Assembly (NCBI GenBank): GCA_025336725.1
Contig: GCA_025336725.1_3647.1
Origin: Escherichia coli
GTDB lineage: Bacteria; Pseudomonadota; Gammaproteobacteria; Enterobacterales; Enterobacteriaceae
Length of the DNA stretch: 64,000 bases
Strand: one strand, 5' to 3'
In this document: piece after piece, positions 1-50,900 of the stretch
Position numbering within the stretch: the first letter of the stretch is position 1
Layout of the letters: every line of letters begins with the position of its first letter
Translations under genes and position numbers: made by a program
The notes under the pieces: generated by a model
What the model was told of the DNA's origin: nothing
Database searches by the model: none
What the model saw: only the letters and a program-made list of their open reading frames with translations

Positions 1-342
1 CACGTTCTCTTCAATATCTCCGCTATAGACACTTTTAATGAACGTCAGGATCTCTTTTTCACCATTAGACTGATTGCGACAGCAACGAGGGCATCCTTGT
101 CCTTTCCCGTAATGGAATTCAGGACGCTGCATGAAGATATTCCCACACTCTTTGTGGCGCATCATCATAGGCGTTGAGGCGTTCACATAAGAGTCTTCAA
201 AATACTCATAATCCCCACCATGAACTTCTACACATCTCTCAACTATTTCTTGGAAGCTAGGAACTTTTTTCACAGAAACAGACCTTGCTGCGCAAGTCTT
301 GCACCCTTGCCCAGATAAATGCTTGCTGGGTTTCTGATACAT
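1..342 (-). CDS. Zn-ribbon repeat protein, partial (runs off window start)
   Basis: Minus-strand frame from ATG near 342 encodes ...VHGGDYEYF...CGNIF-QRPEFHYGKGQGCPRC, the same repeat module as ORF 430..729; not in the ORF track because truncated. Confidence 0.35.
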   Translation of the reverse strand, partial: MYQKPSKHLSGQGCKTCAARSVSVKKVPSFQEIVERCVEVHGGDYEYFEDSYVNASTPMMMRHKECGNIFMQRPEFHYGKGQGCPRCCRNQSNGEKEILTFIKSVYSGDIEENV

Positions 343-429
343 TATTCTTCCGCACGTTTTGCAATGAATCTCAACCTTATCCCAGAGGTCTTGCTTACTA
401 CATGGCTATGACCATACTTTTCAGCATTT

Positions 430-729
430 TCAAGGATATCTTTTTAATACCTTTTTGATCCACTCCTCGGTAGTGCACCTGTTACCACGCTCATGTGGGA
501 ATTTCTTACCCTTTCTTGATTTTGCAGATCTCTCAGCTCCACAAACAGGGCATCCTCTTTTTAGATTTATATGGTTATCAGGTGTCTGGTTGAAGTGGTT
601 ACCGCAGGTATTGCAGACTATTTCTACCTTATCTTTGCATGTTTTGTATTCTATAAGAGAATAATCGTACTTATCTCCGTGAACCCTACGAGCTTTTTCG
701 ATAAACCTTTCTGCACTCAATTTAGCCAT
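430..729 (-). CDS. Zn-ribbon repeat protein (VHGDKYDYS...CNTCG...GCPVCG module)
   Basis: 99-aa track ORF; RBS AAGGAGGAG before ATG at 729; Cys-x2-Cys ... Gly-Cys-Pro-x-Cys zinc-ribbon signature. Confidence 0.45.
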   Translation of the reverse strand: MAKLSAERFIEKARRVHGDKYDYSLIEYKTCKDKVEIVCNTCGNHFNQTPDNHINLKRGCPVCGAERSAKSRKGKKFPHERGNRCTTEEWIKKVLKRYP

Positions 730-789
730 AACTGTCTCCTCCTTTATTGTAGGATACTAAAAACAAACAAATATGTCAAAACCCTAAAA

Positions 790-818
790 GCAAAAAAGCC
801 CCACCCGAAGGTGAGGCT
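790..818 (-). terminator. Intrinsic terminator after tail tube gene
   Basis: Minus-strand hairpin AGCCTCACC-ttcg-GGTGGGGCT followed by TTTTTTG. Confidence 0.55.
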
Positions 819-835
819 TATACTAAAGTGTGCCC

Positions 836-1309
836 TTAGATAATACCTGCAAGACCTGCGAGGCCAGTGAGAGCACCAGTGATGTTGTCACGGTTGAGCC
901 ATGCATCCAGAATACCGATATCCCAGTCCAGTTGACCTACTTCGGTTCCGTAAGTCAGGTCAGGCTGTTTCTGGATCCAACCGATTGTAGAAATACCAGG
1001 GCCTTGGCTACCTTCCAGCAGAACCGGGAAGAATACCAGACCAGTAATCGATGCCTGTTTCTGCCAGTCGGAAAGGTAGGCGTTCCATACAGAAGTGTTC
1101 TGCAAAGATACAGTCATAACACCGGATTGGTTACGAGACAGAGCCGCAGACATTTCGCCATCCACACCAACGTGAGGGTAGATGTTGTCTTCATTTCTTG
1201 AAACAACGATCTTGGTGTCAGCAGCGAAGCCAGTGACACGCTGCTGCATCAGATACAGTTTGACCTTTTTAGGGTCATACGCATAAGGAGTTAAAATTTG
1301 AGTTTCCAT
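836..1309 (-). CDS. Tail tube protein (putative)
   Basis: 157-aa ORF immediately downstream of the sheath-sized gene on the same strand, the canonical sheath-tube order; no motif check possible. Confidence 0.5.
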   Translation of the reverse strand: METQILTPYAYDPKKVKLYLMQQRVTGFAADTKIVVSRNEDNIYPHVGVDGEMSAALSRNQSGVMTVSLQNTSVWNAYLSDWQKQASITGLVFFPVLLEGSQGPGISTIGWIQKQPDLTYGTEVGQLDWDIGILDAWLNRDNITGALTGLAGLAGII

Positions 1310-1319
1310 CTAGTATTCC

Positions 1320-2696
1320 TTATTCAGTCATTGCAACAGCATTGGTGGATTTAGAACCAACTTTGTCCAGAAGAACGTTGATCCGGATACGAACGAAGTG
1401 CAGAGCGTTGTTATACACCAGTTCTACTTTCACACCTTCCAGAACACGAGCAGCCAACTGGTTGGTCGGGATTTCTGCACGTTTTGGAACTGTAATGATC
1501 GGGTCGTAGAATACATTGTTGTCTTCGTCAAAACCTGTCAGGATAGCACCGTTCTTAATGCCCGTATTGATCGGGTTGTTCATCAGAACAGACTTGATAA
1601 CTGGCAGATCATCATCAGACATCTTCATGCTCAGGCCCATATTAGAGCGGCGGTGCATATATCCGAACATGGACTCTTCAGATCTAAACTTAATCCAGTG
1701 AGCGAAGCGGATAGCATCTGCATACTGACCAGAGGCACATTTACCTTCCCAGAAAGCACCAACACCGTTGATTGTTCTGTAGAAGTTAATGTTGTTCTCC
1801 CAAATCGCCATGCGCTGGGTCAATGTCAGTGATGGTGCAAGCACACCAGGCATCTGTTTTAAGTGTAAGCTGTCTCCGTAAGATGGATCGTTGGATGCCA
1901 TAGCACCGATAATACCGCCCTCTGGGAAGTCTTTGTCGGCGCGAGGGTCGTACATACCAACACTGTCATATTTTGCAGCTTTCAGTTTAGCGGCGATGTT
2001 GCTGTCTTTACCAGTTACATCTTCTGAAGTAGAGTAGACATGTAACTTGTAGTTAGCCTGAGCCCACTTAGCACACGCCTCAATGTCTGTGTGGTCTTCA
2101 TGACACAGGAAGTACCAATTGTCCCGCTCAGCATTGATCTTGTCAATTACTGTAGAAGGTTTTTCAGCATTGGCGATATTTTTGATTGTATAGTTACCAG
2201 TATGATAACCAACAGTGCAGTCACCAGTGATGGTGAGAACACCTTCAGAAGCCTCTACAGTGATATCGTTCAAGCTATCATCTGCTTCAATTTTAGTCTT
2301 CATTGACTCTGCAATCTGAGTTGCACCTGTTCCACCAGAAACAGGGACTATCAAGGCAGTATTGTAGTCACCTTTTGCAATAGTCATTACGACATCGGTA
2401 TCAGCTGCAGCAGCAATGCCTTTGAAATCTACAGTGGTTTTTTCTTTGGCTTGTCTGCCGATCATAACATATTGTGGAGGGAATACACCACCAAAAGCTT
2501 TTGCTGCAAACTCATATGCTGCAGAGCCTTGTGCGAAACCATCTTCCACCATCTGGTCCAGCTCAGCATATACGCGAGCTCGCTCAGTAAAGTTATTGTG
2601 GATAGCGATGAACAGGGGAGTTTCGAAACCTACAGTGTCAATAGGCTGGGTTCCGAGGTTAACTGTAACATCTACCACTTTATCTAAATATGGCAT
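1320..2696 (-). CDS. Contractile tail sheath protein (putative)
   Basis: 458-aa ORF, sheath-like size and position between head-completion genes and tube gene. Confidence 0.6.
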   Translation of the reverse strand: MPYLDKVVDVTVNLGTQPIDTVGFETPLFIAIHNNFTERARVYAELDQMVEDGFAQGSAAYEFAAKAFGGVFPPQYVMIGRQAKEKTTVDFKGIAAAADTDVVMTIAKGDYNTALIVPVSGGTGATQIAESMKTKIEADDSLNDITVEASEGVLTITGDCTVGYHTGNYTIKNIANAEKPSTVIDKINAERDNWYFLCHEDHTDIEACAKWAQANYKLHVYSTSEDVTGKDSNIAAKLKAAKYDSVGMYDPRADKDFPEGGIIGAMASNDPSYGDSLHLKQMPGVLAPSLTLTQRMAIWENNINFYRTINGVGAFWEGKCASGQYADAIRFAHWIKFRSEESMFGYMHRRSNMGLSMKMSDDDLPVIKSVLMNNPINTGIKNGAILTGFDEDNNVFYDPIITVPKRAEIPTNQLAARVLEGVKVELVYNNALHFVRIRINVLLDKVGSKSTNAVAMTE

Positions 2697-2768
2697 TTGT
2701 TTCCTCTTAATATCTGTGCACGGATATCAAACACGCAGTGTAATCATTACACTACACAATTATAACGA

Positions 2769-3320
2769 TTACTGACCGCTGTCTGTAACCGCTTGACCAG
2801 CATCGGGTGAAGGGAAATGTGTGGTTACTTCAGCCTTTATTCCCTGGAGATCTTCAAAAGCCCCAATGTCTGTCTCAACAAACCTTACGTTAAATGTCAA
2901 CATTACAGTGGCTCTATTTTCATACGTCTGCTTATTCAACGGCACCCTTTGAGGTGAGATTGTTGAATTGTTAGAGTAGGCAAAGCACGATCCCAGAGGG
3001 AAATACTTGTCATAAAACATTGGGAGATTTATTGCTTGCAGCACTCTACTCAGTGCAGCATATGCCCTGCCACGATAAGCTGTTAACAGATAAGTAACAG
3101 TGTAACTATGGGTGACGTAAGCATTACCCTCCGCATCTTGAAACTCATTGTCTTCCCAAGTGGTAGGATTGATCGCCAATGTTTGTAAAAGTACAAACTC
3201 ACCTTCCGGCTTCGGTATGGTAGAACTTTCTGCCAGAACCACAGTTCTTCCTGTAGCAACCTTGACGAGTTTAGCAATAGTGGTTTCAAGATCAGAAAAA
3301 ACTTTTTCGAAAGCTTCCAT
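2769..3320 (-). CDS. Hypothetical virion protein (tail completion/neck region)
   Basis: 183-aa track ORF packed between head and tail genes. Confidence 0.3.
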   Translation of the reverse strand: MEAFEKVFSDLETTIAKLVKVATGRTVVLAESSTIPKPEGEFVLLQTLAINPTTWEDNEFQDAEGNAYVTHSYTVTYLLTAYRGRAYAALSRVLQAINLPMFYDKYFPLGSCFAYSNNSTISPQRVPLNKQTYENRATVMLTFNVRFVETDIGAFEDLQGIKAEVTTHFPSPDAGQAVTDSGQ

Positions 3321-7315: not shown

Positions 7316-7789
7316 TTATTTGTTAGATTCTGCACGTGCACGAGCAAGTGCTTTTGCAACGTTTTCAGCAAGAATTTCTTCTGCGGATTTTGCAATATCA
7401 TCCACAACAGGTTCGCCATCATTACCATGTTCAGTGGTGGCAAACTCTTCTTTGGTTTTATGCACCTCTGCTTCCAGCTCTTCAATTTTTGCTTGAGCTT
7501 TCTCCAGCATAGCTACGATAGGTTCGTTAGCTTTTTCCAGCATGAAGTCAACCAGGGTTGCATGATCTTCTTCACCAACAAAGCTTAAAGCTTGAGCTTT
7601 AGCCAGCATTTTAGCTTTTTCAACTTCAACCTGGGCCTTGATGATTTCTTCAGCTTTACTCTGGGTTGCTTTCAGCTCTTCTACTTGCTTCAGCAGATCC
7701 AGATACTCTTTAGTTTTGGTTACGTCCACCGGATTCTCCTCGGTATTTGCGGATTTTGCAACATCATCCACCTCGGTAGTTTTATCCAC
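7316..7789 (-). CDS. Scaffolding protein (putative)
   Basis: 157-aa acidic, Ala/Glu/Lys-rich predicted coiled coil, upstream of capsid gene. Confidence 0.45.
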   Translation of the reverse strand: MDKTTEVDDVAKSANTEENPVDVTKTKEYLDLLKQVEELKATQSKAEEIIKAQVEVEKAKMLAKAQALSFVGEEDHATLVDFMLEKANEPIVAMLEKAQAKIEELEAEVHKTKEEFATTEHGNDGEPVVDDIAKSAEEILAENVAKALARARAESNK

Positions 7790-7809
7790 CTCAGCAGGTT
7801 CCTGTCTAC

Positions 7810-8295
7810 TTAACAGATCAGGTTCCCTTCTTTATCGAAGAGATCAGCGGTTACTTGTTCAAAAATCTGTTGTGTTTTTAACGAACTGCTCTGATCTACC
7901 ACGTTAAGCTGCTTGCCTTCTTTTGCAGCTTTATGAATGGTCACGTTATCACAACGCTCTTCCAGCCATGCAATGCAAGACTCTGCGTCAGCTTGCGCCC
8001 ATTCCCAATCAGGATGCTCTTTAGCCCAAGCTTCCTCTTCAATCTCAAAACCAAGCATGTGTGCGAGTGCTTTGGCATCGTCATACCACATATCGAAGAA
8101 ACGACGCAGGTATTCTTCAAAACTCAGCTCCACAGTAACTTGGCGAAGTGCCTTAACAATATCGTCTGTTAACTGCTCAGGCTGAAGATCACTCTTCATC
8201 AAAAGAGATACAGGTCTGTTGTTAGCGCTATAGCCTTGCGCCTTATGGCACAGGGCAATCCCCTTCTCTTTAATAGTGATTGTTTTTTCAGACAT
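7810..8295 (-). CDS. Hypothetical head morphogenesis protein
   Basis: 161-aa track ORF between portal and scaffold. Confidence 0.3.
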   Translation of the reverse strand: MSEKTITIKEKGIALCHKAQGYSANNRPVSLLMKSDLQPEQLTDDIVKALRQVTVELSFEEYLRRFFDMWYDDAKALAHMLGFEIEEEAWAKEHPDWEWAQADAESCIAWLEERCDNVTIHKAAKEGKQLNVVDQSSSLKTQQIFEQVTADLFDKEGNLIC

Positions 8296-10440: not shown

Positions 10441-11583
10441 TTAGATAAAACGCTTGAACATAGAGGGTGATGAGATTGATGGAATCACACAAGGCAGCGC
10501 TACCTCCTCTTTCTCCAGGAAATTAATCGCAGAAGCTACACAGTCGGCCCAGTCGTCTTTTCTGTTAAATGTTGATCTTTCCCCGTTGAATTTTTCAAGT
10601 TCAGTCAGAAATGCTTCCAGAGTATCAGGATGAAAACTGGATTTTACAATCCTCACCATCCCTTGTTGGGCAAGATTGGCAAAAGGTGAGAACCTTGTCA
10701 GTTTAGATTTGTTGGAAGGCATTGGGTCTTCTTCAACCCTGAACCCTTCGGCGAGCAAGGATCTGGATGAGGTTAAGAACTCACTCTTACCTGCCTGACC
10801 AGGGTCCACAGAAAATACGATTATGCAATCATCTCCATCAAACTGCGCCTGTTTTCTGATGATCACATCTCGTTCCCCAGCCTTTTTACAGAACTTGCCT
10901 TCCAGACCTGTGGAATACCTCCCGTCATCCACGTTCTCAGGACAATAGTCCCCAGATAGGTAATAAAAGCCGTCGCTATCTTTACTTACCTTAACACTGG
11001 CGGTAAAGTCAGGAAATTTATTACCGGAAGTTCTCTCGGTTCCTGCCTTATCCCATGCCCTGCAAGATACTGATCCAAGAGGTACTCTATCGGCATCACG
11101 AAGGAAAGATCTTTGGAAATAGTTTGCACCCTCAGGTTTGGCAAACCAGTTGCCATGAAGAAGCTGGGCTTTTTCCAGCTCTGGCAGACCTTCAAGGAAA
11201 GCAAGGTATTCTGGGTTGTCTCTCAGGCATACAGGATTATCGAAAATTGTTGCGCCTATAAACGAGAATGACAACGGTCTTGGCTTGATTTCCACACCTA
11301 GTCCATTGACCGTAGTGTATTTCTCTATTAACTCCTCTTTAGAGTCTCCCCAGATAAACTCACCGTCGCGTCGGATAAAATATCTTTTCTTACCACATTT
11401 CTCCGGATCTGGATACCCTTCATCGTCCAACCACCACCTAACCAGTTTGGCAAGCATGTGTTCTGAGTCGGGGTTACAACTGATAACCATTCTTGATGGA
11501 TACTTTGACTGAGATCGCAGACGAGACATCAAATAGTCTATCTGCTCCCATTCGAATTGCGTGCCTTCATCGAAGCAAACCAT
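10441..11583 (-). CDS. terL: Large terminase, Walker B and nuclease segment
   Basis: Begins MVCFDEGTQF (Walker B hhhhDE); same frame as 11611..11988, separated from it by a single TAA at 11608-11610. Confidence 0.75.
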   Translation of the reverse strand: MVCFDEGTQFEWEQIDYLMSRLRSQSKYPSRMVISCNPDSEHMLAKLVRWWLDDEGYPDPEKCGKKRYFIRRDGEFIWGDSKEELIEKYTTVNGLGVEIKPRPLSFSFIGATIFDNPVCLRDNPEYLAFLEGLPELEKAQLLHGNWFAKPEGANYFQRSFLRDADRVPLGSVSCRAWDKAGTERTSGNKFPDFTASVKVSKDSDGFYYLSGDYCPENVDDGRYSTGLEGKFCKKAGERDVIIRKQAQFDGDDCIIVFSVDPGQAGKSEFLTSSRSLLAEGFRVEEDPMPSNKSKLTRFSPFANLAQQGMVRIVKSSFHPDTLEAFLTELEKFNGERSTFNRKDDWADCVASAINFLEKEEVALPCVIPSISSPSMFKRFI

Positions 11584-11610
11584 GGTGTATTCAAGTCCTT
11601 GATGGTTAGT

Positions 11611-11988
11611 TTATCTTGGACATACTCCATGTGGCAGTATTTTACAACGGCCTCCTTTTTTGCTCCTGTCCCACTTGCCAGTGCTCGGATCAAACCGTGG
11701 AAAAATAAACTTATGATCCTTCTCTCTGAACTTTGGTTTAATGTTTTCAGGCAGATCACTGTAAATAGCTACTGCTTTAGGCCATAGCCCACCCTCACCT
11801 TCCAACTGTGGAGTTGTTCTTCGGAACATAACCACAGAGCTGTGTGGGTCATCAATAATTTTAAGTGGCATTAGCTGCAAGAGGAACGACTTGCCAGAAC
11901 CGGCTGCACCTCCGATCACCAAAATATCTGCATCGTTCTCAAGGATCATCTTCTGCTTTTCAGAACACGGTCCGTAAATCTTAGACAT
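11611..11988 (-). CDS. terL: Large terminase, N-terminal ATPase segment
   Basis: Walker A GGAAGSGKS; ends at an in-frame TAA 8 codons before the downstream segment. Confidence 0.75.
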   Translation of the reverse strand: MSKIYGPCSEKQKMILENDADILVIGGAAGSGKSFLLQLMPLKIIDDPHSSVVMFRRTTPQLEGEGGLWPKAVAIYSDLPENIKPKFREKDHKFIFPRFDPSTGKWDRSKKGGRCKILPHGVCPR

Positions 11989-13088: not shown

Positions 13089-13165
13089 TGGTCTCCACGG
13101 AGTGATTCGAACACTCGACCTCCTGATCCCAAATCAGGCGCTCTACCAAGCTGAGCTACGCGGAG
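13089..13165 (-). tRNA. tRNA-Pro (anticodon TGG)
   Basis: Hand-folded cloverleaf: acceptor CTCCGCG/CGTGGAG, anticodon stem CCTGA/TCAGG with loop TTTGGGA, T-loop TTCGAAT, encoded CCA. Confidence 0.65.
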
Positions 13166-13174
13166 TTTATAATT

Positions 13175-13249
13175 TGGTGGCCCTGGGTGGAATTGAACCA
13201 CCGTCTGGCGATTATGAGTCGCTTGCTTGAACCTTCCAGCTACAGGGCC
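13175..13249 (-). tRNA. tRNA-Met (anticodon CAT; could be Ile-lysidine)
   Basis: Acceptor GGCCCTG/CAGGGCC, anticodon loop CTCATAA, T-loop TTCAATT, encoded CCA. Confidence 0.6.
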
Positions 13250-13250
13250 A

Positions 13251-13326
13251 TGGTGCTGATGGCAGGACTCGAACCTGCAACCTATTGATTACAAATCAAT
13301 TGCACTACCAATTGTGCTACATCAGC
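13251..13326 (-). tRNA. tRNA-Thr (anticodon TGT)
   Basis: Acceptor GCTGATG/CATCAGC, anticodon stem ATTGA/TCAAT with loop TTTGTAA, T-arm GCAGG-TTCGAGT-CCTGC, CCA. Confidence 0.6.
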
Positions 13327-13331
13327 AAAAA

Positions 13332-13430
13332 GGTGCTAGGCGATGGAATCGAACCACCTATGTATTCAACGACTACTTCGTCTATTTTCAGGATTAAAAA
13401 TCCTCGCCCTTGCCAAAGGGCCTACCTAGC
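13332..13430 (-). tRNA. Atypical tRNA-like element (~99 nt), identity unresolved
   Basis: Good acceptor (GCTAGGT/GCCTAGC), D-arm and T-arm (GGTGG-TTCGATT-CCATC); only plausible anticodon hairpin AGGA-TTTTTAA-TCCT (TTT) plus a ~30-nt variable region with its own hairpin. Confidence 0.4.
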
Positions 13431-13528
13431 ATATTATGCGAATCATGCTGCTAGTCGGCGATGACGACTGTAACATTTGTTAATCCGGTTCTGCTTCCGG
13501 AGCTCGCTTAATTTCATGATCCACGATC

Positions 13529-13618
13529 TGGCAGAGAGTAATGGAATCGAACCATCATCGAGGATATCTCAACGGGACGGTTTTCAAGACCGCTTGAGCA
13601 CCATGCTCCCTACTCTCT
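13529..13618 (-). tRNA. tRNA-Ser (anticodon TGA), long variable arm
   Basis: Acceptor AGAGAGT/ACTCTCT, anticodon stem GCGGT/ACCGT with loop CTTGAAA, ~20-nt variable arm, T-loop TTCGATT, CCA. Confidence 0.6.
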
Positions 13619-13730
13619 TTTTATAAACAACACTGATAATGACACTGATTTTCGAACAGTTAGTGACTAGTATAAACGACGATAAACATCAATGTCATTA
13701 TCTATGTTATTTATCACAAATATGTAATTT

Positions 13731-13817
13731 TGGTGGGGAGTGATGGAGTCGAACCACCCGAGTCGCAATGACAATAGATTTACAGTCTACACCGCTACCC
13801 CTACGGTATAACTCCCC
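13731..13817 (-). tRNA. tRNA-Tyr (anticodon GTA), long variable arm
   Basis: Acceptor GGGGAGT/ACTCCCC, anticodon stem GTAGA/TCTAT with loop CTGTAAA, ~15-nt variable arm, T-loop TTCGACT, CCA. Confidence 0.6.
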
Positions 13818-13821
13818 GATT

Positions 13822-13896
13822 TGGCACCCCGTACTGGACTCGAACCAGTGTCAACGGCTTAGAAGGCCGCTGCTTTATCCACTAAGCTAACAGGGC
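13822..13896 (-). tRNA. tRNA-Arg (anticodon TCT)
   Basis: Anticodon stem GCGGC/GCCGT with loop CTTCTAA, T-loop TTCGAGT, CCA; acceptor contains G-U wobbles. Confidence 0.55.
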
Positions 13897-24462: not shown

Positions 24463-24474
24463 GCGGGGGATTAC

Positions 24475-24937
24475 GTGGAAGACGGTCGTTTAATGAAGTC
24501 TGAACGCAGGCTTATTGTGCAGCTGATCCCAGAAACAGCTTGGTATAATAACCTACGAAACGCTGTGAAGAAGAGCGAGTGGGATAAGATCCGTAAGAAG
24601 TGCTACAGAGAGGCCAACTACACTTGTGAGGTGTGTGGCGGTAAAGGTAGCAAACACCCAGAATTAGTGTCATGAACTTTACACTTTCGAAGGGGGTGAT
24701 CGGCTTGTAGGACTGATAGCGTTGTGCCCAGACTGTCACACATCGGTGCATCCAGGGTTAGCAAATATCCGTGGAAAGTATGCTCAGGCAGTTAATCAGT
24801 TGGCTAAGGTGAATAAGATCACCAAGGGTATGGCAGAGGCCTATTACCGAGACTGCTTTGCAGAGTGGCGTGAGCTTAGTAAAGTTCCAGAATGGAAGAC
24901 TGACTTTTCGTGGATAGAGGGTTACCTTGATGGCTAA
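24475..24937 (+). CDS. HNH-like zinc-finger nuclease, apparently frameshifted
   Basis: CEVCGGKG...HPELV in one frame continues as CHELYTFEGGDRLVGLIALCPDCHTSVH in the adjacent frame (~24655). Confidence 0.4.
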
Positions 24938-26720: not shown

Positions 26721-27052
26721 TGACTAAAAATGCTGTAGATAACGCAATTATGGAAGCTGTTTTTGAGGATGACCATACAACAGGGACACTTAAAACAAAA
26801 AACACATTCGTTGTTGCCACAGGTATGTGGCGGTTGTATGAAGATGACACCATTTCATACATCCTGTACACGGATGATTACGCAGATGACCGTGTATGGT
26901 CTGCTGTTTTAAAAGAGGATTGTGAGCTGATTGATGGCGAGCGGTTATGCATGTTCACCAGTGTGGAAACCGATGTTAAGCTTTGCTCTCTCGTCTTGTT
27001 CAAAGATAAGGCTTATGCTCCTGATGAAGGAGAGGAGGATAAGGAAGCATGA
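26717..27052 (+). CDS. Hypothetical acidic protein
   Basis: 111-aa track ORF. Confidence 0.3.
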   Translation: MMTKNAVDNAIMEAVFEDDHTTGTLKTKNTFVVATGMWRLYEDDTISYILYTDDYADDRVWSAVLKEDCELIDGERLCMFTSVETDVKLCSLVLFKDKAYAPDEGEEDKEA

Positions 27053-27676
27053 GAGAGCGTCTATTATCCATAGACCAGTCGTTGACACACACAGCTTGTG
27101 TTGTATGGGACGATGGAAAGCCTGTTCATAAGGTTGTATTACGAACTCAAAGCTCATCTGCAAAAGAGAAGAAACCAGGGACGGTTTCTTTTGCAACAGC
27201 TGCTGAGCGTATTGACTGGATCTGCAAACAGGTCAGATATTATATCCACACGCACGGAGTTGACACCGTGGTTATGGAAGGGCTTTCCTTTGGATCACGC
27301 GGGGATGCCACACGTGAACTGGCGGGTTGTTTTACGGTCTCGAAGTATGCTTTGGGATGCTTTAGCAGATTGTGAAAATGACGGCCTGTTTAAGGTCCAC
27401 ACAGTAACACCGACAACCGCCAAAAAGTTTGCTCGTAGTCATCTTCCTGAAGAACTTGCTTTTGAGGAGAAGAAAAAGCTTGACAAAAAGACAGGTAAAG
27501 AGCATACTGTGAAGAAACCTGTTACGATGGATAAAAAGTTAATGGTTAAGGCCTGTGAAGTATCTGAACCAGGGTTTCTGGATGGGATCAATTTAAGATA
27601 CAAGGTAAGGCCGATCTGCAGATGCCTACGGATAGGCAGGGCGCATCTGGAGGGATTATCGCAAAGCGTAAAATAA
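27049..27676 (+). CDS. RNase H-fold nuclease (RuvC/YqgF-like resolvase candidate), apparently frameshifted
   Basis: SIDQSLTHTA...VVMEG in the first frame; continues in a second frame after ~27340 (near TGTTTTA). Confidence 0.3.
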
Positions 27677-28231
27677 GAAAGAAAGCTGTCAAAGCTCCCG
27701 TTCATAGCGGGTGGCTAAAAGATTCTAAGGACATAGCCAACTTTCGGAAAGAATTGTCAGAAGAGCAGGATGGCCTTGATCCGATCTTGTGCGAGCCACT
27801 TCGTAAGCCTTGTTTAGATCATGATCATCTGACTGGTCGTTGCAGAGGTGTTTTGTCCCAATGCACTAATACCTTTGAAAGATATGTGCTTAAATACTGG
27901 ATGAAATACTGTAGCGAGTATCAGGTGCAGTTTATCAGAGGCGTTGCGCCGGATGGCTGACTATCTGGAGAAAGACTACAGCGACTTCCCGCTCCACAAA
28001 AACTACAGAGACGATATGACAAAGTTCTTGAGGAGATGCTCTAAAGCCACAATTATTGCACGAGCAGAATCGGATCTCGATCTTGTCATTAATCCAGAGT
28101 ACACTAAGCATGAGGCTATTGAAGCCTACATGCAGGAGTTCATAAAGAAAACTGAGGAGAGAGACTTCTATGGGGATGAAAAAGGTATTCAATCCTTGCG
28201 ATTCAGTTCTGATCAGGATGAAATACCGTAA
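27622..28231 (+). CDS. Endonuclease VII-like resolvase, apparently frameshifted
   Basis: CLDHDHLTGRCRGVL...CTN resembles the T4 gp49 core; C-terminal part (ADYLEKDY...) lies in the next frame from ~27950. Confidence 0.5.
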
Positions 28232-35032: not shown

Positions 35033-37344
35033 TCACCAAAGTAATTAAAAGTAACGGATGTGAAGTTGAATTCGATCCAGAACGTTTAAATAAGGCAGCT
35101 ATTTTCGGTGACGACGGTAACGGCAATTGGTCACATATTGCAATGGATGCATACAAACGTCTGTATGATGGATGCACAACCAAAGAAGTTAACCAAGCTA
35201 TTATAGATTCATGTGTTAGCCGTAAAGACGAAGCACATTCCCGTATGGCTGGTCGTGTTCTTATTGGTCAGATCTATAAAGAGGCTTTTGGAGGGTTTAC
35301 AAAGATCCCTTCCTTACCATCATTCTACAATACCATGGTTGAGAAAGGGTATTGGGAGGATATGGGTTATAGCTTTACTGAGTTAAACACTTTAAACACT
35401 GTTATTGATCACAGTAAAGATCTCGGTTATGGCTATGCAGTCCTTAAACAGTTTCGTGACAAATACGGGATCAAGGATACTCTTAAAGACACCCTGTTTG
35501 AATCTCCCCAGATGATGTTTATGGGGATAGCAATGGCTGTAATGAAGAATATGCCTAAAGAACGCCGTATTAACGATGTTGTAAAATTATACACTTATCT
35601 GTCAGACTTAAAGATCAATGCCCCGACACCGTACTTAAACGGTCTACGCACAGGCAAGACAGGGTATGCATCTTGTTGCGTAATAAAAGCTGACGATACA
35701 GCAAAGTCTATTGGTGTGGCACGTGAAGTTGCTTACACAATGACGGTTAACCAAGCAGGCATTGGCTACTATTTATCGTCAAGATCTGCAGGTGATGGTG
35801 TTCGTGGTAACACGATTAAACATATGGGAAAGCTCCCATATTATCGTGGTATTGATGCTGGGGTTAAGGAGAATAGACAACAATCCCGTGGTGGTTCGGC
35901 AACAGTGTCATTCCTTGCACTGGATCCTCAGATTGATGAGCTAATCCGTTTGAGAAACCCTATGACTGTTGCTTCAAAAAGAATCAACACTATGGATTAT
36001 TCCATAGGTATTAATAGGTCGTTTATCAACCGTGTGGCTAAAAATTTAGATTGGATGCTTGTTTCTTATAAGCACGCACCTCAGCTGCATGAAGGCATCT
36101 TCACCATGTCTATGGAGGAGTTTGATGCAGAGGTTGATCGGATCGCTAAAGATGACAGTATTCCTAAAACATGGATCCGTGCTAGAGATCTTGCTGCTGA
36201 ACTTATCACGCAGCGTACTGAGGTAGGAAGACTGTATGTATACTGGACAGACGAGATGAATAGGCATACACCTTTTAAAGATGTAATCTATTCAAGCAAC
36301 CTGTGTGCAGAGATAGCCCTTCCGACAAAAGGCTATTCAGATATGCGTAATATCTTCAAGTATGATGCTGATGATGGTGAGGTTGCATTGTGCTTCCTAT
36401 CATCTCTTGTAGCTGGGAGGGTTACCCCAGAGGAGTATGAGGACGTTGCATACTACACGGTGCTTATGATTGACAATGTTATGGAAATCATGACATATCC
36501 GTATGAAAATATGGAGAGCACTGTTAAAAAACGCAGATCCATCGGGGTTGGCCTTACCAATGTTGCACATTTTATTGCCAGCCACAAGGTTACTTACGGA
36601 TCTCCTGAAAGTAAACAGCTTGTTCACGATCTTGCAGAACTCCACAGCTACAGCTTGCATAAGGCAAGTTTACGGTTGGCAAAAGAGCGTGGTGTCTGCG
36701 AGTGGATGCATAAAACAAAATATCCAGAAGGTTGGTTACCAATCGACACCTATAACAAAGAGGTCGATAGCGTGGTGAAAGATCCTTCTCTTAAACAGGA
36801 TTGGGAAGGGTTACGTAAAGAAATAATTGAAAATGGTGGGCTACGTAATAGCGTTCTTGAAGCATATATGCCTAATGAAAGCTCTTCGCTGGCAACAAAC
36901 ACCACTAACGGGGTTTATCCTGTCCGTGAGCACATTATCTTTAAAAAGTCGCCACAAGGGCAGGTGCTGTTTATCGTTCCTGACTATGATGAGTTGAAAG
37001 AGTATTACACTTCGGCTTGGGACGTTGATACTAACGACATGATCGATATGTATGCTGTGATTCAAAAATTCACAGGTCAGGCAATCAGCGCGGATTTATA
37101 CATCGACTACACCAAGTTGAAAGATGGTAAAATTTCAATGAAGGAGCAGCTGGGTTACCTTATCCGTGCTACTAAATTCGGGATGAAGACATGGTATTAT
37201 TTAAACTCCAGGGTTGGTGCTGGTGACTCCTTGGCAGAGGAACTTCATGCCAAGAAACAGGCTGAAGATGAAACCAGAAAGAACTATCCTTTGATTGCAG
37301 ATAGTTCAGTTGAAGATCCGTATTGCGAAAGCTGTGCACTATAA
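35029..37344 (+). CDS. nrdA: Ribonucleotide reductase class Ia large subunit
   Basis: 771 aa, NrdA-typical length, followed by NrdB-like and glutaredoxin genes. Confidence 0.7.
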   Translation: MITKVIKSNGCEVEFDPERLNKAAIFGDDGNGNWSHIAMDAYKRLYDGCTTKEVNQAIIDSCVSRKDEAHSRMAGRVLIGQIYKEAFGGFTKIPSLPSFYNTMVEKGYWEDMGYSFTELNTLNTVIDHSKDLGYGYAVLKQFRDKYGIKDTLKDTLFESPQMMFMGIAMAVMKNMPKERRINDVVKLYTYLSDLKINAPTPYLNGLRTGKTGYASCCVIKADDTAKSIGVAREVAYTMTVNQAGIGYYLSSRSAGDGVRGNTIKHMGKLPYYRGIDAGVKENRQQSRGGSATVSFLALDPQIDELIRLRNPMTVASKRINTMDYSIGINRSFINRVAKNLDWMLVSYKHAPQLHEGIFTMSMEEFDAEVDRIAKDDSIPKTWIRARDLAAELITQRTEVGRLYVYWTDEMNRHTPFKDVIYSSNLCAEIALPTKGYSDMRNIFKYDADDGEVALCFLSSLVAGRVTPEEYEDVAYYTVLMIDNVMEIMTYPYENMESTVKKRRSIGVGLTNVAHFIASHKVTYGSPESKQLVHDLAELHSYSLHKASLRLAKERGVCEWMHKTKYPEGWLPIDTYNKEVDSVVKDPSLKQDWEGLRKEIIENGGLRNSVLEAYMPNESSSLATNTTNGVYPVREHIIFKKSPQGQVLFIVPDYDELKEYYTSAWDVDTNDMIDMYAVIQKFTGQAISADLYIDYTKLKDGKISMKEQLGYLIRATKFGMKTWYYLNSRVGAGDSLAEELHAKKQAEDETRKNYPLIADSSVEDPYCESCAL

Positions 37345-37349
37345 TTTTA

Positions 37350-37371
37350 AAGGGGCTTCGGCCCCATTTTA
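37350..37371 (+). terminator. Hairpin plus T-tract between nrdA and nrdB (attenuator-like)
   Basis: GGGGC-ttcg-GCCCC followed by ATTTT. Confidence 0.45.
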
Positions 37372-37382
37372 GAGGTAGAATA

Positions 37383-38470
37383 ATGGCTGTATTTAATGCT
37401 GAGAACACCGCTCATAAAACTGGTGACTATCCGCTGTTTCTGGGACAGCAAATGGGCATGTACGACTCTATCAACAAAAAATATCCACAACTGTTTGAAC
37501 TATACAAAAAACAAAAAGAGCAAGATTGGGCAGAGGATGAAGTGGATTTGTCGCAATCTATTTCAGATTTTGTAACATGCTCTAAGTCAACTTATGACGT
37601 GATGGTGCAGACCTTGATGTGGCAATGGGAGGCTGATAGCGTTGCGGCAAGATCGATTATCTGCCTCTTTTCACCATTCATCACTAATAGCGAGCTTTTC
37701 ACTCTACTGATGAAACAGTCAGAGATTGAAGTTCTTCACGCACTAACCTACTCAGAGATTGTTAGACAATGCCTCCCTAATGCTCGTGAGATTATAGAAG
37801 AGATTCAGGAAAACCAAAACGTTCTGAGCAGATCTGGCGTTATTGTCAAATACATGCAAGAGCTTGAGATTATTGGTGCAAAATACCGACTGGATCCTTC
37901 TAGTGTTGAAGAAGATATTGTGCGGAAATGCATTCTTAGAGCGCTTTTGCACTTTTAGCTCTGGAAAGTATTGAGTTTGTGCAAGTTTTGCATATACTTT
38001 CGCAGTAGCTGAACAGGGTATTTTTTGTTCAGGTAGCGCAGCTTGTTCAAAAAATCATGCTTGACGAAATGCTGCACTCGAAAGGTGATTTTGCCATCAT
38101 TGATATCCTGCTTAATGATCCAGCATGGGAGAAAAGCTTCCTTGAGATAAAAGGGGAGTTAAAAGAGATTCTTGATGAAGTACGAACCAAAGAGTACGGT
38201 TGGAGCGACTATATTTTCAGCGAAGGAAGAGCGATTATAGGTCTTAACTCACCGTTGCTTAAAGAATGGGTTGACTATAACTGTTCACCGATTTATGATT
38301 ACTACGACATCGACAAAGACTTTGTGCCGCCAACAAAGGACCCGCTACCGTTTATGCAGGTGTGGATGAAACCTTCATTGCAACAGACGGCGAACCAAGA
38401 AATGTCGAACACTGACTACCGCGTCAACACAACTGTTAACGACGCTGAAGAAGAAATTTGGGAGTTTTAA
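37383..38470 (+). CDS. nrdB: Ribonucleotide reductase small subunit, disrupted by about three frameshifts
   Basis: N-part has ExxH-Y (EIEVLHALTY); the SFAxxFAxAE and DEMLH motifs appear in different frames within 37940-38060, each switch at a T-run. Confidence 0.65.
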
Positions 38471-38473
38471 TAT

Positions 38474-38752
38474 ATGAGCTGCGAAAAATCTTTTTTCATC
38501 ATCATTTACGGTAAGGATAACTGCCCACATTGTGTAAGAGCAAAAGAATTTGCAGTCAGTAAAGGCATACCTTTCGTATACAAGACGCTAGGTGAGGGAT
38601 ACACAAAAGAAGAGCTTATCGAGAAGTGTAGCCCATTTGTTCCCAGAACGTTGCCTCAGATCTTCTTGGAAAGCAACCTTAACAGTATCCACATAGGAGG
38701 TGCTGACGATTTCATCTCTTTTGTTAAGAATGGTTTTGGAGAGAAAAAGTGA
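38474..38752 (+). CDS. Glutaredoxin (NrdH-like)
   Basis: 92 aa with CPHC redox motif near the N-terminus. Confidence 0.65.
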   Translation: MSCEKSFFIIIYGKDNCPHCVRAKEFAVSKGIPFVYKTLGEGYTKEELIEKCSPFVPRTLPQIFLESNLNSIHIGGADDFISFVKNGFGEKK

Positions 38753-41378
38753 AAGTTGTAAAACGGGACGGTAGAGAAGAGTTTTATAACGGAATCAAGG
38801 TGATCAAGGCGGCAGAGTCCGCCTTACTTGAGTCTGGGCATACTGAAGAAGAAGCTTACCGGATTGCCTGCGCGGTTAATGAAGTTGTTGCCAACAATCT
38901 GCCAACCGACCAGTGCACGATCTCTGTAAAAAATATCCATATCCTTGTTGAAGATGCTCTTATGGATATGGGTTTAAAATGTGCAGCCAGAGAATACATC
39001 CAGTATAGACAGACAAGAGATAATAACAGAGAGGCAGGTGGAAAACTGCTTGCAGATATTAGTGGCTTTTTGGATCGTACTTGTGATGAATTTACAAAAG
39101 AAAACGCAAATAAGCCTACTAATCATGTACACACTCATCGTGACCTGCTTGCAGGAATCCTTAGCAAACACCTTGCATCAACACAGATCCTGCCAGATCG
39201 TGTCTCAGAAGAGCACAACAAGGGCTTCATCCATGTGCATGATCTTGACTACTTGATCAGTCCGTTAACAAACTGTTGTTTGGTAAATTATCCGGATATG
39301 CTGGAAAACGGATTCAACATTGGTAACGCCCATGTCAGCAAGCCTAAGTCAATAGGGGTTGCAACAACAATCCTTAGCCAAATCTCTAGTGCAGTAGCTA
39401 GTGCTCAATATGGTGGTCAGACTATGAGCCATATTGATCATTATTTGGCACAGTATGCTGAAGCCACCTATGAGAAGAACCTTAAATTTTGTCAGGAGCA
39501 TTGGTTGCCGGATGCTGAAGGCGTTGCAATGCAGATGACTGATAAAGACGTGTTTGACAGTATGCAGACGTTGCTTTATCAAATCAACACGTTAACTTCT
39601 GTCAACGGTTAACAAACTGGCCGTTTTAAAACTCTGCTAACCTCAGTATGAGGGGTCAGCTGATTGCTGGCTAACGGGGAACGCTAAGGCGAAAGCTATG
39701 CCAATCCCGTGACTAGCTTCACAAGGAGTGAGGCGGTTGTAACGACTAACCTTTTGGTGTAGGGATTATGGAAGATTCCGAAACGCAGAGGTCTGATTAA
39801 GAATCACATGGTGTGATTTCAGGCAAGAGATAGTCTGGCCTTGTGGAAACATAAGGGTGGGGACCGCAAACCCCTTTTATCACATTAAGTTTAGGACTTG
39901 ATACCTCGGTCTTTGGTAGAATGATTACCAAAAACTATTTGAAAGTTCACAAAATGGGTCTTGGTGAAGAACGGATCACACCTGTGTTCCCTAAAGTATT
40001 GTTCTTCCTAGAAGAGGGTGTCAACATGAGCCCTGAGGATCCTAACTATGATTTGAAACGATTAGCTCTGGAATGCTCTGCAGAGCGGATTTATCCTGAC
40101 TTTGTTTCTGTTCCGCTAAATCGTAAGGTGACAGGTTCTACAGATGGCAAAGTAACGAGCATGGGTAAACTATAACTGCTCATGTAAAATCTATCTAAAC
40201 GGGGAAACTCCAGAACGGACAATCCCGTGCTAAATGTTCTTTTGAACTAAATGCCTAACGACTAACCGTGATGAATGTAGCGGTGTAGGGTGTAAGCCGA
40301 TGACACTCGAAATGGTAGACACACTAAGTGTGAAGATATAGTCTGATCTGCATGGGAACATGCAGCAGCACTTAAAGGTGCGGGGGTGGACTTGCGAACC
40401 ACCCTGAACATAATGTGTAGAAGTTTCTTATCGAAATATAGCGACCCTGTAACAGGCGAGGAGAAATACCTTGGCAGATTTAACTTAGGTGTTGTTAGCC
40501 TTAACCTACCAATGATTGCGGCAAAAGCTAAGACGGAAGGTGTTGATTTCTTTACCGTTCTAGACGAATATCTGGATTTGGCATATGAAGCTCACCTTGT
40601 AAGGGTTAACCGTCTGAAAGGCACTAAGGCAGGTCAGAACCCCATCATGTGGTGTGAAGGCGCTCTTGCTCGCTTGGATCCTGAAGAGAGTATTGATAAA
40701 CTCTTCTATGACGGGTACGCTTCCATCAGTATTGGGTATATTGGTGTGTATGAAACCTGTCAGATTTTGGGTAGAGAGGGAGACAAGGCTTTAGCTCTTG
40801 GAATCCTTCAGCACATGAAAGATGCTTGTGAGCGATATAAGAAGGAAAGTGGTCTGGCATTCAGCTTGTACGGCACTCCTTCTGAAAGCTTGTGCTACAA
40901 AGCTGCAACCTGTCTGGATCGTGAATATCCTGAGGTATTGAAGCACGAGCATGAATATATCACCAACAGTTTCCACCAACCAGTATGGATCAATAGTTCA
41001 CCTTTTGATAAGTGGAAGTATGAAGAAGGTTTTGCTATGATCTCCTCTGGCGGCAACATTGGATACATAGAGACACCTAACCTGAAAAACAACCTGGATG
41101 CTTTAGAGGCTCTTGTTGACTTCGGGTATAAACACATTATGTATTTTGGTATTAACCAGCCAGTGGATAAATGTCTTAAGTGTGGATTCTCTGGTGAGTT
41201 CAGTGCAACAGCTAAAGGGTTCTGCTGCCCTGCGTGCGGATGCCACGATGAACAATATATCTCAGTGATCCGAAGAGTGTCTGGCTATCTCTCCAGCCCG
41301 AACAGTAGGCCGTATAACACAGGTAAACAAGCAGAGGTTATCGAGCGAGTTAAGCACTACGGAAGTTGTGGCTGCTGA
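38749..41378 (+). CDS. nrdD: Anaerobic ribonucleotide reductase, three exons
   Basis: Exon1 38749..39609, exon2 ~39867..40166 (GPQTPF...DTS...GRMIT...PEDPNYDL), exon3 40416..41378 (CRSFL, RVSGYL glycyl-radical motif, CxxC...CxxC). Confidence 0.7.
39610..39866 (+). mobile_element. Group I intron 1 in nrdD (ORF-less, ~257 nt)
   Basis: Exon ends in T, intron begins with TAA stop and ends in G; contains AAGAGATAGTCTGG resembling the group I core; exon reading frame restored after removal. Confidence 0.5.
40167..40415 (+). mobile_element. Group I intron 2 in nrdD (ORF-less, ~249 nt)
   Basis: 5' exon ends ATGGGT, intron ends in G before TGT AGA (CRSFL); contains AAGATATAGTC, the conserved group I core element. 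Confidence 0.6.
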
Positions 41379-47698: not shown

Positions 47699-47902
47699 TT
47701 GAAAAAGGAGACAGCAATGGCAAAAAATAAATCTTTAGAGCAGGCTGAAAACCTTCTCCACGAGCTGGTAAAGGAGTGGAAAGTTGAATACTCAGATTTT
47801 AATGCAAGAGAAGGTGAGGATTATTGGCCTACGGAGCGCTCAGAGGGGGAGTGGTATCAAGATTTTATAGAATGGTTATATCAGACGTGCGATGAGGGGT
47901 GA
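47699..47902 (+). CDS. Hypothetical acidic protein
   Basis: Track ORF; probable start MAKNKSLEQ near 47717 after AAAGGAGA. Confidence 0.3.
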   Translation: MKKETAMAKNKSLEQAENLLHELVKEWKVEYSDFNAREGEDYWPTERSEGEWYQDFIEWLYQTCDEG

Positions 47903-48309
47903 CGATGTTTGTTAAATATGTAAAAACGTGCCTCAACAGTCTTGGTAGAGAGCATTGGTACACACTGCTTGAAAAAGGAGAAATTTTAACAAAATCTGGA
48001 AAGATAACTTTGATACCTTTGGACGATAAAGATCCGTCACTACTTGTCATAGATGATTACGTTACAGGTGTGTCGTACGAGGTATCTGTAGAGAGGTTAA
48101 TACGCAGATCTGGAGGTCCTTATGACCGAAGAGAGTATGTTTTCGATTCCGTTACAGAGAAGGAAGATCCGTCCCTAATGTTTAGGATGGTGATCAGGGA
48201 TATGAAATCATCTATAAATAGGATCGTAAAGGACATTAGAAGGCCTTTTAGGGTAAAAGTTAAGAAGTTTTTGATTCTAAAAAGATCAACATACTCGCCG
48301 TTGTGCTAG
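47899..48309 (+). CDS. Hypothetical protein
   Basis: 136-aa track ORF. Confidence 0.3.
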   Translation: MTMFVKYVKTCLNSLGREHWYTLLEKGEILTKSGKITLIPLDDKDPSLLVIDDYVTGVSYEVSVERLIRRSGGPYDRREYVFDSVTEKEDPSLMFRMVIRDMKSSINRIVKDIRRPFRVKVKKFLILKRSTYSPLC

Positions 48310-48342
48310 GCGTAATTCAACTTCTGTTAATTTTGCACTATT

Positions 48343-48372
48343 TTGAACTGTTGTTTAAGTAATGTGTATTAT
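48343..48372 (+). promoter_or_regulatory. Sigma70-type promoter followed by a palindrome
   Basis: TTGAAC - 18 nt - TATTAT, then ATGGCACA-aagga-TGTGCCAT. Confidence 0.45.
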
Positions 48373-48422
48373 GGCACAAAGGATGTGCCATAATTAAATA
48401 AACTAAGAAAGAGGTAGAGAGA

Positions 48423-50497: not shown

Positions 50498-50900
50498 TTG
50501 GGGACTGTTGTGAAAAATAAACTGTTCAAAGTTACAATGAAAATTCGCGGAGCTTGGAGCGTAAAGCAAGGGCGTATCCCGGAATTTGAAAAAGACTTCT
50601 ACGTAGTCTCCACCTCGGAGGCTGCATGCTGTGAGCTGGCTGTACTATGCAAGAACTGTCGAAGGATACCAGACTGGTGGCTATGACGGAGAAATTATAA
50701 GCAAGGGTGTAGAAGAAATTAATGTGTTGACAAGTGAAAAAGTTTTTGTTATAGTGCATCCAGATTCCAGAGTGAAGCATTACTGGAATGCCAGAACAAA
50801 AACTTGGACACCGTTTGCAGATTCTGCTACGCCACTTTTAAACCAGAAAGCTCTTGACTCTGCCCCAAGTTATGGGGTTGTTGAAGAAAAGCTAGACTGA
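50498..50900 (+). CDS. Hypothetical protein, apparently frameshifted; paralog of 52705..53100
   Basis: Two overlapping track ORFs; C-part VIVHPDSRVKHYWNARTKTWTP matches VMRHPHSNIAYYWDVLNNEWTP of the 52705 ORF. Confidence 0.35.

Follow-up and report, generated by a model that had tools for sequence, protein, structure and literature searches.

The first 729 nucleotides (nt) of the stretch of DNA analysed here, a 64,000-nt piece of the Escherichia coli assembly GCA_025336725.1 (contig GCA_025336725.1_3647.1) which we refer to as the window, encode on the minus strand the promoter-proximal 243 codons of a gene built from repeated zinc-finger modules, lying downstream of the tail sheath and tail tube genes of a phage. 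Of the 131 phage records found by megablast with positions 1-3000, nearly all belong to rV5-like coliphages (Vequintavirus), and on this sequence identity the window is that of an rV5-like coliphage. Judged by its homologs, its domains and its genomic setting, the gene very probably encodes a homing endonuclease that is Hef-like and of the Vsr/EDxHD type, and is free-standing. Its reading frame is interrupted in the second module by a pair of opposite single-base insertions or deletions (indels), which are probably an artefact of this assembly, a likelier account than real decay of the gene.

Translation of minus-strand positions 1-800 in three frames revealed three copies of a module of approximately 62 amino acids (aa), each laid out as a helix with VHG.KYDY followed by a C/H-x2-C/H pair and then a C-x2-C pair. 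A first-pass annotation, made from the sequence without database searches, had recorded at least three such copies on this strand and had placed them in two open reading frames (ORFs) in different frames. The copies are indeed present; once the frame is corrected, the modules match one another by blastp with E values of 2e-13, 6e-12 and 4e-7, a similarity far beyond chance that shows the repeat to be genuine. The division between two frames has to be abandoned, as all three modules share one frame that is disturbed by a compensating +1/-1 pair. This frame opens at ATG 729-727, reads MAKLSAERFIEKARRVHGDKYDYS...CNTCG...GCPVCG, meets three stops, and then resumes as ...HCKTCG...GCKTCA...VHGGDYEY...RHKECG...GCPRCC...NGEKEILTFIKSVYSGDIEENV up to base 1.

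Across 41 diverse homologs the metal-ligand columns C39, C60, C63, C123, C143, C146, C213 and C216 are invariant. Modules 1 and 2 each present a CxxC...CxxC set and module 3 an HxxC...CxxC set, while the first ligand pair is CxxH in most homologs; four conserved Cys/His candidate metal ligands are found in every module, the feature by which units of the CapR/DUF723/DUF4379 type are recognised. ORF1, the upstream part of the interrupted gene, passes the Pfam cut-off for DUF723 marginally (22.0 bits against 20.9) and scores 20.8 bits for DUF4379, described by Pfam as a 'probable treble clef zinc finger', which is under that family's cut-off of 24.5. In the homologs the same families recur (DUF4379 in 36/41, DUF723 in 31/41 and CapR in 13/41). 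An AlphaFold2 model of ORF1 alone reached a predicted local distance difference test score (pLDDT) of 78.5, and comparison of this single-module model with solved structures using Foldseek gave nothing significant (best E=0.09). From these profiles and ligand patterns the modules are identified as CapR/DUF723/DUF4379-type zinc-finger units. The first-pass annotation had been unable to name the family and had noted a resemblance to DNA-binding modules seen with phage homing endonucleases, a suggestion that proved sound and can now be given these names, together with the Hef-like, Vsr/EDxHD assignment of the protein as a whole.

The interruption can be located to the base by DNA alignment to the intact genes of phages HMD-6 and JEP1. 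An extra base is present at 432/433 (TATCC[T]TGAAAAT), and a base is missing from TCTGG-GATAAGG on the coding strand, corresponding to the C-run at 381-383 on the plus strand. Between the two indels lie some 50 nt that are out of frame, and three in-frame stop codons fall there, at 430-432, 421-423 and 406-408. A possible frameshift with a short junction at about 342-430 had been suspected from the outset, and both the frameshift and its coordinates were right, with ORF1 occupying 430-729 and ORF2 starting at ATG 342-340. The pair disrupts the helix and YDY part of module 2, and the CKTCG...GCKTC part is in frame again; translation of the patch in its own frame still gives ENAEKYGHSHVVSKTSG, the peptide of this helix and YDY part. 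Without the two indels, window positions 375-440 would contain TATCCTGAAAAT and TCTGGGGATAAGG (or TCTGGAGATAAGG).

ORF1 corresponds exactly to the NCBI protein MCT7477436.1 (N5V81_21785), and the sheath protein encoded upstream to MCT7477438.1. Within the window ORF2 runs for 114 aa, and these agree at every residue with the beginning of MCT7477435.1 (N5V81_21780, 412 aa), the remaining 298 residues of which are collinear with the intact 541-aa ortholog, without gaps and with all catalytic residues kept; the gene is thus complete beyond the window edge and continues there intact. The first in-frame ATG of ORF2 is preceded only by a weak GGAAG, and a start at this codon splits module 2 in half. 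Sequence specific to the inserted cassette that holds the gene begins directly past the TTGACA of a promoter-like site, and the terminator of the tail tube gene forms the left border of the intergenic region in which the gene lies. The positions of these features are collected in Table 1.

Table 1. Features of the interrupted gene, its expression signals and its neighbours, with two further split-ORF regions of the window
Feature	Position	Strand	Remarks
ORF1, 99 aa	430..729	-	Module 1, basic linker and first helix of module 2; ends at the TGA made by the extra base
ORF2, ATG 342-340	1..342	-	Second half of module 2, module 3 and start of the nuclease domain; extends past the window edge
Zinc-finger module 1	532..717	-	Ligands C39, C42, C60, C63; ligand columns invariant in the family
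Zinc-finger module 2	289..474	-	From ortholog alignment (HMD-6, JEP1) and corrected translation
Zinc-finger module 3	79..264	-	Ligands H192, C195, C213, C216
Out-of-frame patch	381..433	-	ENAEKYGHSHVVSKTSG in its own frame; extra base 432/433, missing base in C-run 381-383 (+ strand)
Start of Vsr-like (EDxHD) nuclease domain	1..75	-	NQSNGEKEILTFIKSVYSGDIEENV, with invariant E224; remainder beyond the window edge
Shine-Dalgarno sequence AAGGAGG	738..744	-	8 nt upstream of ATG 729-727; strong; read from the sequence
Promoter-like site	751..779	-	TTGACA, 17-nt spacer, TATCCT; 10/12 consensus positions; consensus match only
Predicted intrinsic terminator of tail tube gene	796..819	-	Terminator scan: 10-bp stem then T run; conserved with and without the cassette
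Tail tube gene	836-1309	-	Upstream of the cassette, same strand
Tail sheath gene	1320-2696	-	Upstream of the cassette, same strand
Split-ORF region	24466-24934		Intact in HMD-6 and/or JES2013
Split-ORF region	50504-50897		Intact in HMD-6 and/or JES2013

The nature of the whole protein is best seen in its intact orthologs, which are uninterrupted at the same place in HMD-6 (541 aa, XLV54124.1) and JEP1 (540 aa, QOC67640.1). Their architecture consists of three to four zinc-finger modules, a Vsr-like nuclease domain and a C-terminal GNAT domain resembling Mom of phage Mu. Matches spanning the full-length ortholog from end to end are to PHROG 559, which bears the label 'HNH endonuclease' (E=1e-110), and to PHROG 3339, 'homing endonuclease' (6e-67), and the UniRef name of the JEP1 protein is 'Hef-like homing endonuclease'. 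A database search with the protein gave 1207 homologs, mainly on phage-sized contigs, and tblastn found matches at 1692 places in 907 phage records, with up to 11 per genome. Among them are putative homing endonucleases in Acinetobacter phages, in Campylobacter phages, with 11 such places in each genome, and in Coodle, a LIMEstone-like phage of Dickeya. The link to Hef is made through the UniRef name, the tblastn matches to phages reported with Hef-like genes, and the published statement that Hef-type enzymes belong in the Vsr-like family (PMC3239194).

Sequence comparison indicates that the nuclease domain is homologous to Vsr and to I-Bth0305I. Its catalytic motif residues E224, D260 and H278 are invariant in the 41 homologs and N273 is nearly so, and all are kept in the protein from this source. 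The 'HNH' label of PHROG 559 is a misnomer, since Pfam assigns no HNH family to the full-length ortholog (E<=1) and none occurs among the families matched by the 41 homologs; an HNH identity was accordingly rejected in favour of a Vsr-like domain. NCBIfam gave no match to the protein. The C-terminal domain has a predicted GNAT fold closest to that of Mu Mom, a connection made from fold-level similarity together with a Pfam Mom match in 2/41 homologs; a search with the profile of this domain against PDB sequences found no Mom match.

The gene occupies a single position in an otherwise stable region. It is present in 5/122 matching Vequintavirus records (HMD-6, JEP1, PDX, A135 and A147), in every case with the tail tube gene on one side and the tail assembly chaperone gene on the other, and the non-carrier records run from the tail tube gene through approximately 160 nt directly to the chaperone gene. 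What the carriers possess is an intergenic cassette of about 1.65 kb, so that the presence or absence of the gene is polymorphic at one genomic site among close relatives. The first-pass annotation had found a position downstream of tail genes unexpected, a surprise that fades when the gene is seen as an optional cassette that most relatives lack. Free-standing homing endonuclease genes typically sit as such optional intergenic cassettes. No further copies of the gene were found in the window by tblastn. Around 18 GenBank records in the series MG0656xx, deposited as 'Campylobacter phage' (A135, A147, C7 and others), share 93-94% identity with this E. coli Vequintavirus across the tail genes; the A135 record is flagged UNVERIFIED, and the organism and host labels of these 'Campylobacter' records look unreliable.

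The cassette junctions are clean. On the left the cassette starts just past the TTGACA that follows the tail tube terminator, and on the right it ends just before the sigma-70-type promoter of the chaperone gene, which is annotated in rV5; some 6-8 nt are replaced by the cassette. In rV5 itself (DQ832317, ~48,240-48,420) the cassette-free junction contains GGTTTTGACACACGTTCTTGAATTGCTTGAAAGGTTAAATTGACAAT. Cassette-free genomes retain the 22 nt CTTGAATTGCTTGAAAGGTTAA, which agree at 20/22 positions with the final codons and stop of the gene. Either the gene ends within intergenic DNA that was there before, or a deletion produced the cassette-free state. Examples of this cassette-free junction are those of RudolfGeigy (L003:6220-6270) and rV5 (L012). 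Rfam detected no intron at this locus, either in the window or in HMD-6; the gene is therefore considered free-standing, and an intron-encoded endonuclease was rejected.

A second allele is found at the same site in PDX (L004:1612-3462) and A135 (L005:1612-3447). It encodes a protein of 611-616 aa with one extra N-terminal module, making four, and so the number of modules varies at an orthologous site. The DNA identity between the alleles is 68-72% over the module region and ~80% over the whole cassette, a comparison that shows what appears to be fast turnover of the DNA-binding array.

These observations suggest how the cassette may spread. CapR-type modules have been found to bind DNA, binding being abolished by mutation of the Cys ligands in the CapR of PLE (PMC8096241), and repeated CapR/DUF723 modules have been described as DNA-binding arrays of phage homing endonucleases that recombine readily (PMC10448857). 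Strung together, the three modules would recognise an extended DNA target and bring the nuclease domain that follows into place. During co-infection the enzyme would cut the uninterrupted site between the tail tube and chaperone genes of cassette-free phages, recombinational repair from the cassette-bearing genome would copy the gene in, and the carrier would be protected as the insertion splits or destroys the target site. The site-specific pattern of presence and absence in the population speaks for homing of this kind.

The second question raised by the locus is whether the interruption is a property of the phage or of the assembly, and here the rest of the window is informative. Comparison of the window with HMD-6 and JES2013 over ~43 kb revealed frameshifts in several other genes. 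The essential large terminase gene (11563-11988, minus strand) contains a compensating -1/+1 pair like that of the endonuclease gene, at 11609/11653 and 44 nt apart, with a stop at 11611-11613, and the true-frame peptide of this patch, AVVKYCHMEYVQDKL, is identical to that of relatives. Since a viable phage cannot have a broken terminase, errors in the assembly or consensus are the best explanation for such indel pairs in this contig. Three window-specific single-base indels fall in nrdB (37323-38470) at 37945, 37979 and 38021; an RNase H-like gene is frameshifted at 27324/27346 and its neighbour at 27921/27925 (region 27040-28230), a head protein gene at 7806/7812 (region 7316-8295) and a virion structural protein gene at 48273 (region 47896-48359), and an HNH gene and one more ORF are also split across frames. 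The split genes elsewhere in the window are intact in HMD-6 and/or JES2013. Most of the single-base indels in the window are homopolymer-length changes, with an excess of deletions.

The distribution of the products in public collections points the same way. The 99-aa product forms a singleton cluster among ~15 billion proteins and the truncated products occur in one public record only, while at least 12 of the 15 members listed for a 17-member cluster are the intact form of 540/541 aa, one of these members being present on 16 contigs. The exact pattern of the frameshifted allele was not found in viral or genome contigs, absences that weigh little as the intact-allele pattern was also missing from the viral contigs. 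A single metagenome match to the frameshifted pattern (L010) was discarded as an unrelated chance 24-mer. In the same search for an independent copy of the allele, complete E. coli genomes yielded nothing, and PLSDB only a cassette-free phage-plasmid.

It is less likely, and in our view rather improbable, that the indels are real and that the homing endonuclease gene is decaying here, as a pseudogene or a crippled allele in which module 2 has been destroyed. Homing endonuclease genes are dispensable to the phage, and decay fits their known life cycle after fixation in a lineage. Two observations count on this side and weigh against an artefact. The patch holds 6 substitutions in ~50 nt, against 4.3% for the whole gene, and three of them are non-synonymous in the true frame (D106G, Y107H and Y112S), with Y107 and Y112 conserved in at least 90% of the family; these could reflect relaxed selection after a real frameshift. 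In addition, where indels cluster in the window, their net length is often a multiple of three (7/11), which is not expected of purely random errors. On the other hand, terL and nrdB in the same window show the same pattern, which would be intolerable to a viable phage, the truncated product is confined to one assembly, and the 298 residues past the window edge are collinear with the ortholog and keep every catalytic residue. The gene outside the patch also looks constrained, since the unique changes there number 16 synonymous to 6 non-synonymous. That the split is real and functional seems very improbable. ORF1 would then be a lone zinc-finger protein like CapR and ORF2 a nuclease with fewer modules and a changed specificity, and some features would allow it: ORF1 keeps the promoter-like site, the ribosome-binding site and a complete module, predicted with the pLDDT given above, in ORF2 the third module, the nuclease and the GNAT domain are all preserved, and the domestication of such modules in CapR would offer a precedent (PMC8096241; PMC10448857). 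The start of ORF2, with its weak GGAAG and its halving of module 2, speaks against this, as do the absence of the arrangement from all relatives, the restriction of both products to a single record and the many similar interruptions in unrelated genes of the window. Were the interruption nevertheless adaptive, for which we see very little chance, ORF1 (430-729) would bind the tail-gene intergenic region as a CapR-like regulator or a target-masking immunity factor, ORF2 would be a nuclease whose DNA-reading array is shorter and whose specificity is new, and the locus would represent a homing gene caught being dismantled. Programmed recoding, by a +1 shift at CCU-UGA and then a -1 shift or by a ribosomal bypass of ~50 nt as in T4 gene 60, is so improbable that we rejected it. 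At the first indel the stop does follow directly on a Pro codon (CCU UGA), the length of the gap resembles the 50 nt of gene 60 and the true-frame peptide is still recognisable within it; but all orthologs read straight through with no conservation of the shift site, two opposite shifts would be needed, the only downstream CCT landing codon meets a TAA two codons on, and the patch consists of homologous coding sequence and does not represent an insertion. An artefact of this assembly thus stays the probable explanation of the indel pair, and all apparent frameshifts and pseudogenes in this window should be viewed with suspicion.

Doubts of another kind attach to homing itself. The final Asp of the EDxHD motif (D222 of I-Bth0305I) aligns in the HMMER alignment to a nearly invariant His, H288, through either a shift in the alignment or a true substitution. 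Carriers and non-carriers show no fixed differences within 330 nt of the flank on the left and 420 nt on the right, and so no signature of co-conversion. The identity of the gene to the HMD-6 copy (95.5%) is only slightly higher than that of the flanking genes (93.5%), which is not evidence of recent transfer, and the target site, for this protein and its close orthologs, is a putative one deduced from the junction only. These points weigh against the homing endonuclease reading. A different role for the same domains follows from the work of Iyer et al. (PMC7824862), in which a single chain would serve as a conflict system, the Mom-like GNAT domain modifying the phage's own DNA and the Vsr-like nuclease attacking the unmodified DNA of the host or of a competitor. 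We consider this improbable for the present gene: site-specific presence and absence at one intergenic position, with two allelic forms, is the population pattern of a homing gene, some phages have many copies (up to 11 places per record), and the C-terminal domain, which lies outside the window, finds no Mom sequence in the PDB by profile. A Hef-like homing endonuclease gene carried as an optional cassette accordingly remains the reading we prefer.

The terL junction at 11562-11564 is uninterrupted in the window, where HMD-6 has an insertion of ~319 nt (L006 36819-37137) and JES2013 one of ~985 nt at the same point containing an 'endonuclease VII' ORF (L009 11509-12495); from these alignments the insertions are read as an intron/endonuclease presence-absence polymorphism. 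The anaerobic ribonucleotide reductase gene nrdD (38749-41378, plus strand) is interrupted twice relative to the continuous gene of JES2013, at 39610-39866 and 40093-40415. Rfam recognises a group I intron within the second interruption (40093-40365, 72.7 bits) and nothing in the first, of ~257 nt, and the nrdD of HMD-6 holds an HNH endonuclease gene. A cluster of five tRNAs (Rfam RF00005) at 13092-13896 on the minus strand is usual for rV5-like phages.

The family, its architecture and near-identical orthologs are already in the databases and the literature, and the gene is a member of a described kind. The value of the identification lies partly in annotation, as Vequintavirus genes labelled 'hypothetical protein' or, wrongly, 'HNH endonuclease' can be renamed as Hef-like/EDxHD homing endonucleases, and partly in the warning given by a contig in which clustered indels break essential genes. 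The intact HMD-6/JEP1 allele and its many cassette-free partner phages would also provide a convenient experimental system in E. coli.

Of the known systems, the nearest by genomic setting are Hef and the Hef-like enzymes, represented by Hef of phage U5, the F-Lim enzymes of LIMEstone1 and those of the CP220-like phages of Campylobacter, which are likewise free-standing, intergenic and located beside conserved phage genes. Hef of U5 has reportedly been studied experimentally, by Sandegren and colleagues in 2005. That enzyme cuts nrdB, whereas the present gene sits between tail genes, and the likeness to it is one of name and family and not of direct alignment. In LIMEstone1 a Hef-like gene is found beside the tail tube gene (PMC3296691). 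The prototype of the EDxHD nucleases, I-Bth0305I (PDB 3R3P), is encoded by an intron in recA and has NUMOD and helix-turn-helix DNA-binding motifs; the present gene differs in being free-standing, in its zinc-finger repeats and additional GNAT domain, and in the His (H288) that aligns to the final Asp of the motif.

The modules are closest in organisation to those of the ICP1 T5orf172 genes and the PLE protein CapR, with which they share repeated and shuffled N-terminal zinc-finger units of ~60 aa whose number varies between alleles. The ICP1 modules are attached to a T5orf172 (GIY-YIG-related) nuclease and the present ones to a Vsr-like nuclease, and the ligand spacing differs, being CxxC-24/26-CxC in CapR and C/HxxC/H-17-CxxC here. 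A large, mostly unannotated group of enzymes has been described in which three to five CapR/DUF4379/DUF723-like domains of ~60 aa precede an EDxHD/Vsr nuclease (PMC12350094). These have the same CapR-like array and nuclease, but are intron-encoded and end with the nuclease, whereas the present protein is free-standing and has a further, Mom-like GNAT domain. The latter feature is shared with the Mom-REase fusions of jumbo phages (Iyer et al. 2021, PMC7824862), in which a nuclease of the restriction endonuclease fold is fused to a Mom-family GNAT; those fusions are read as restriction/modification-like weapons, while the present gene has the pattern of a site-specific mobile cassette.

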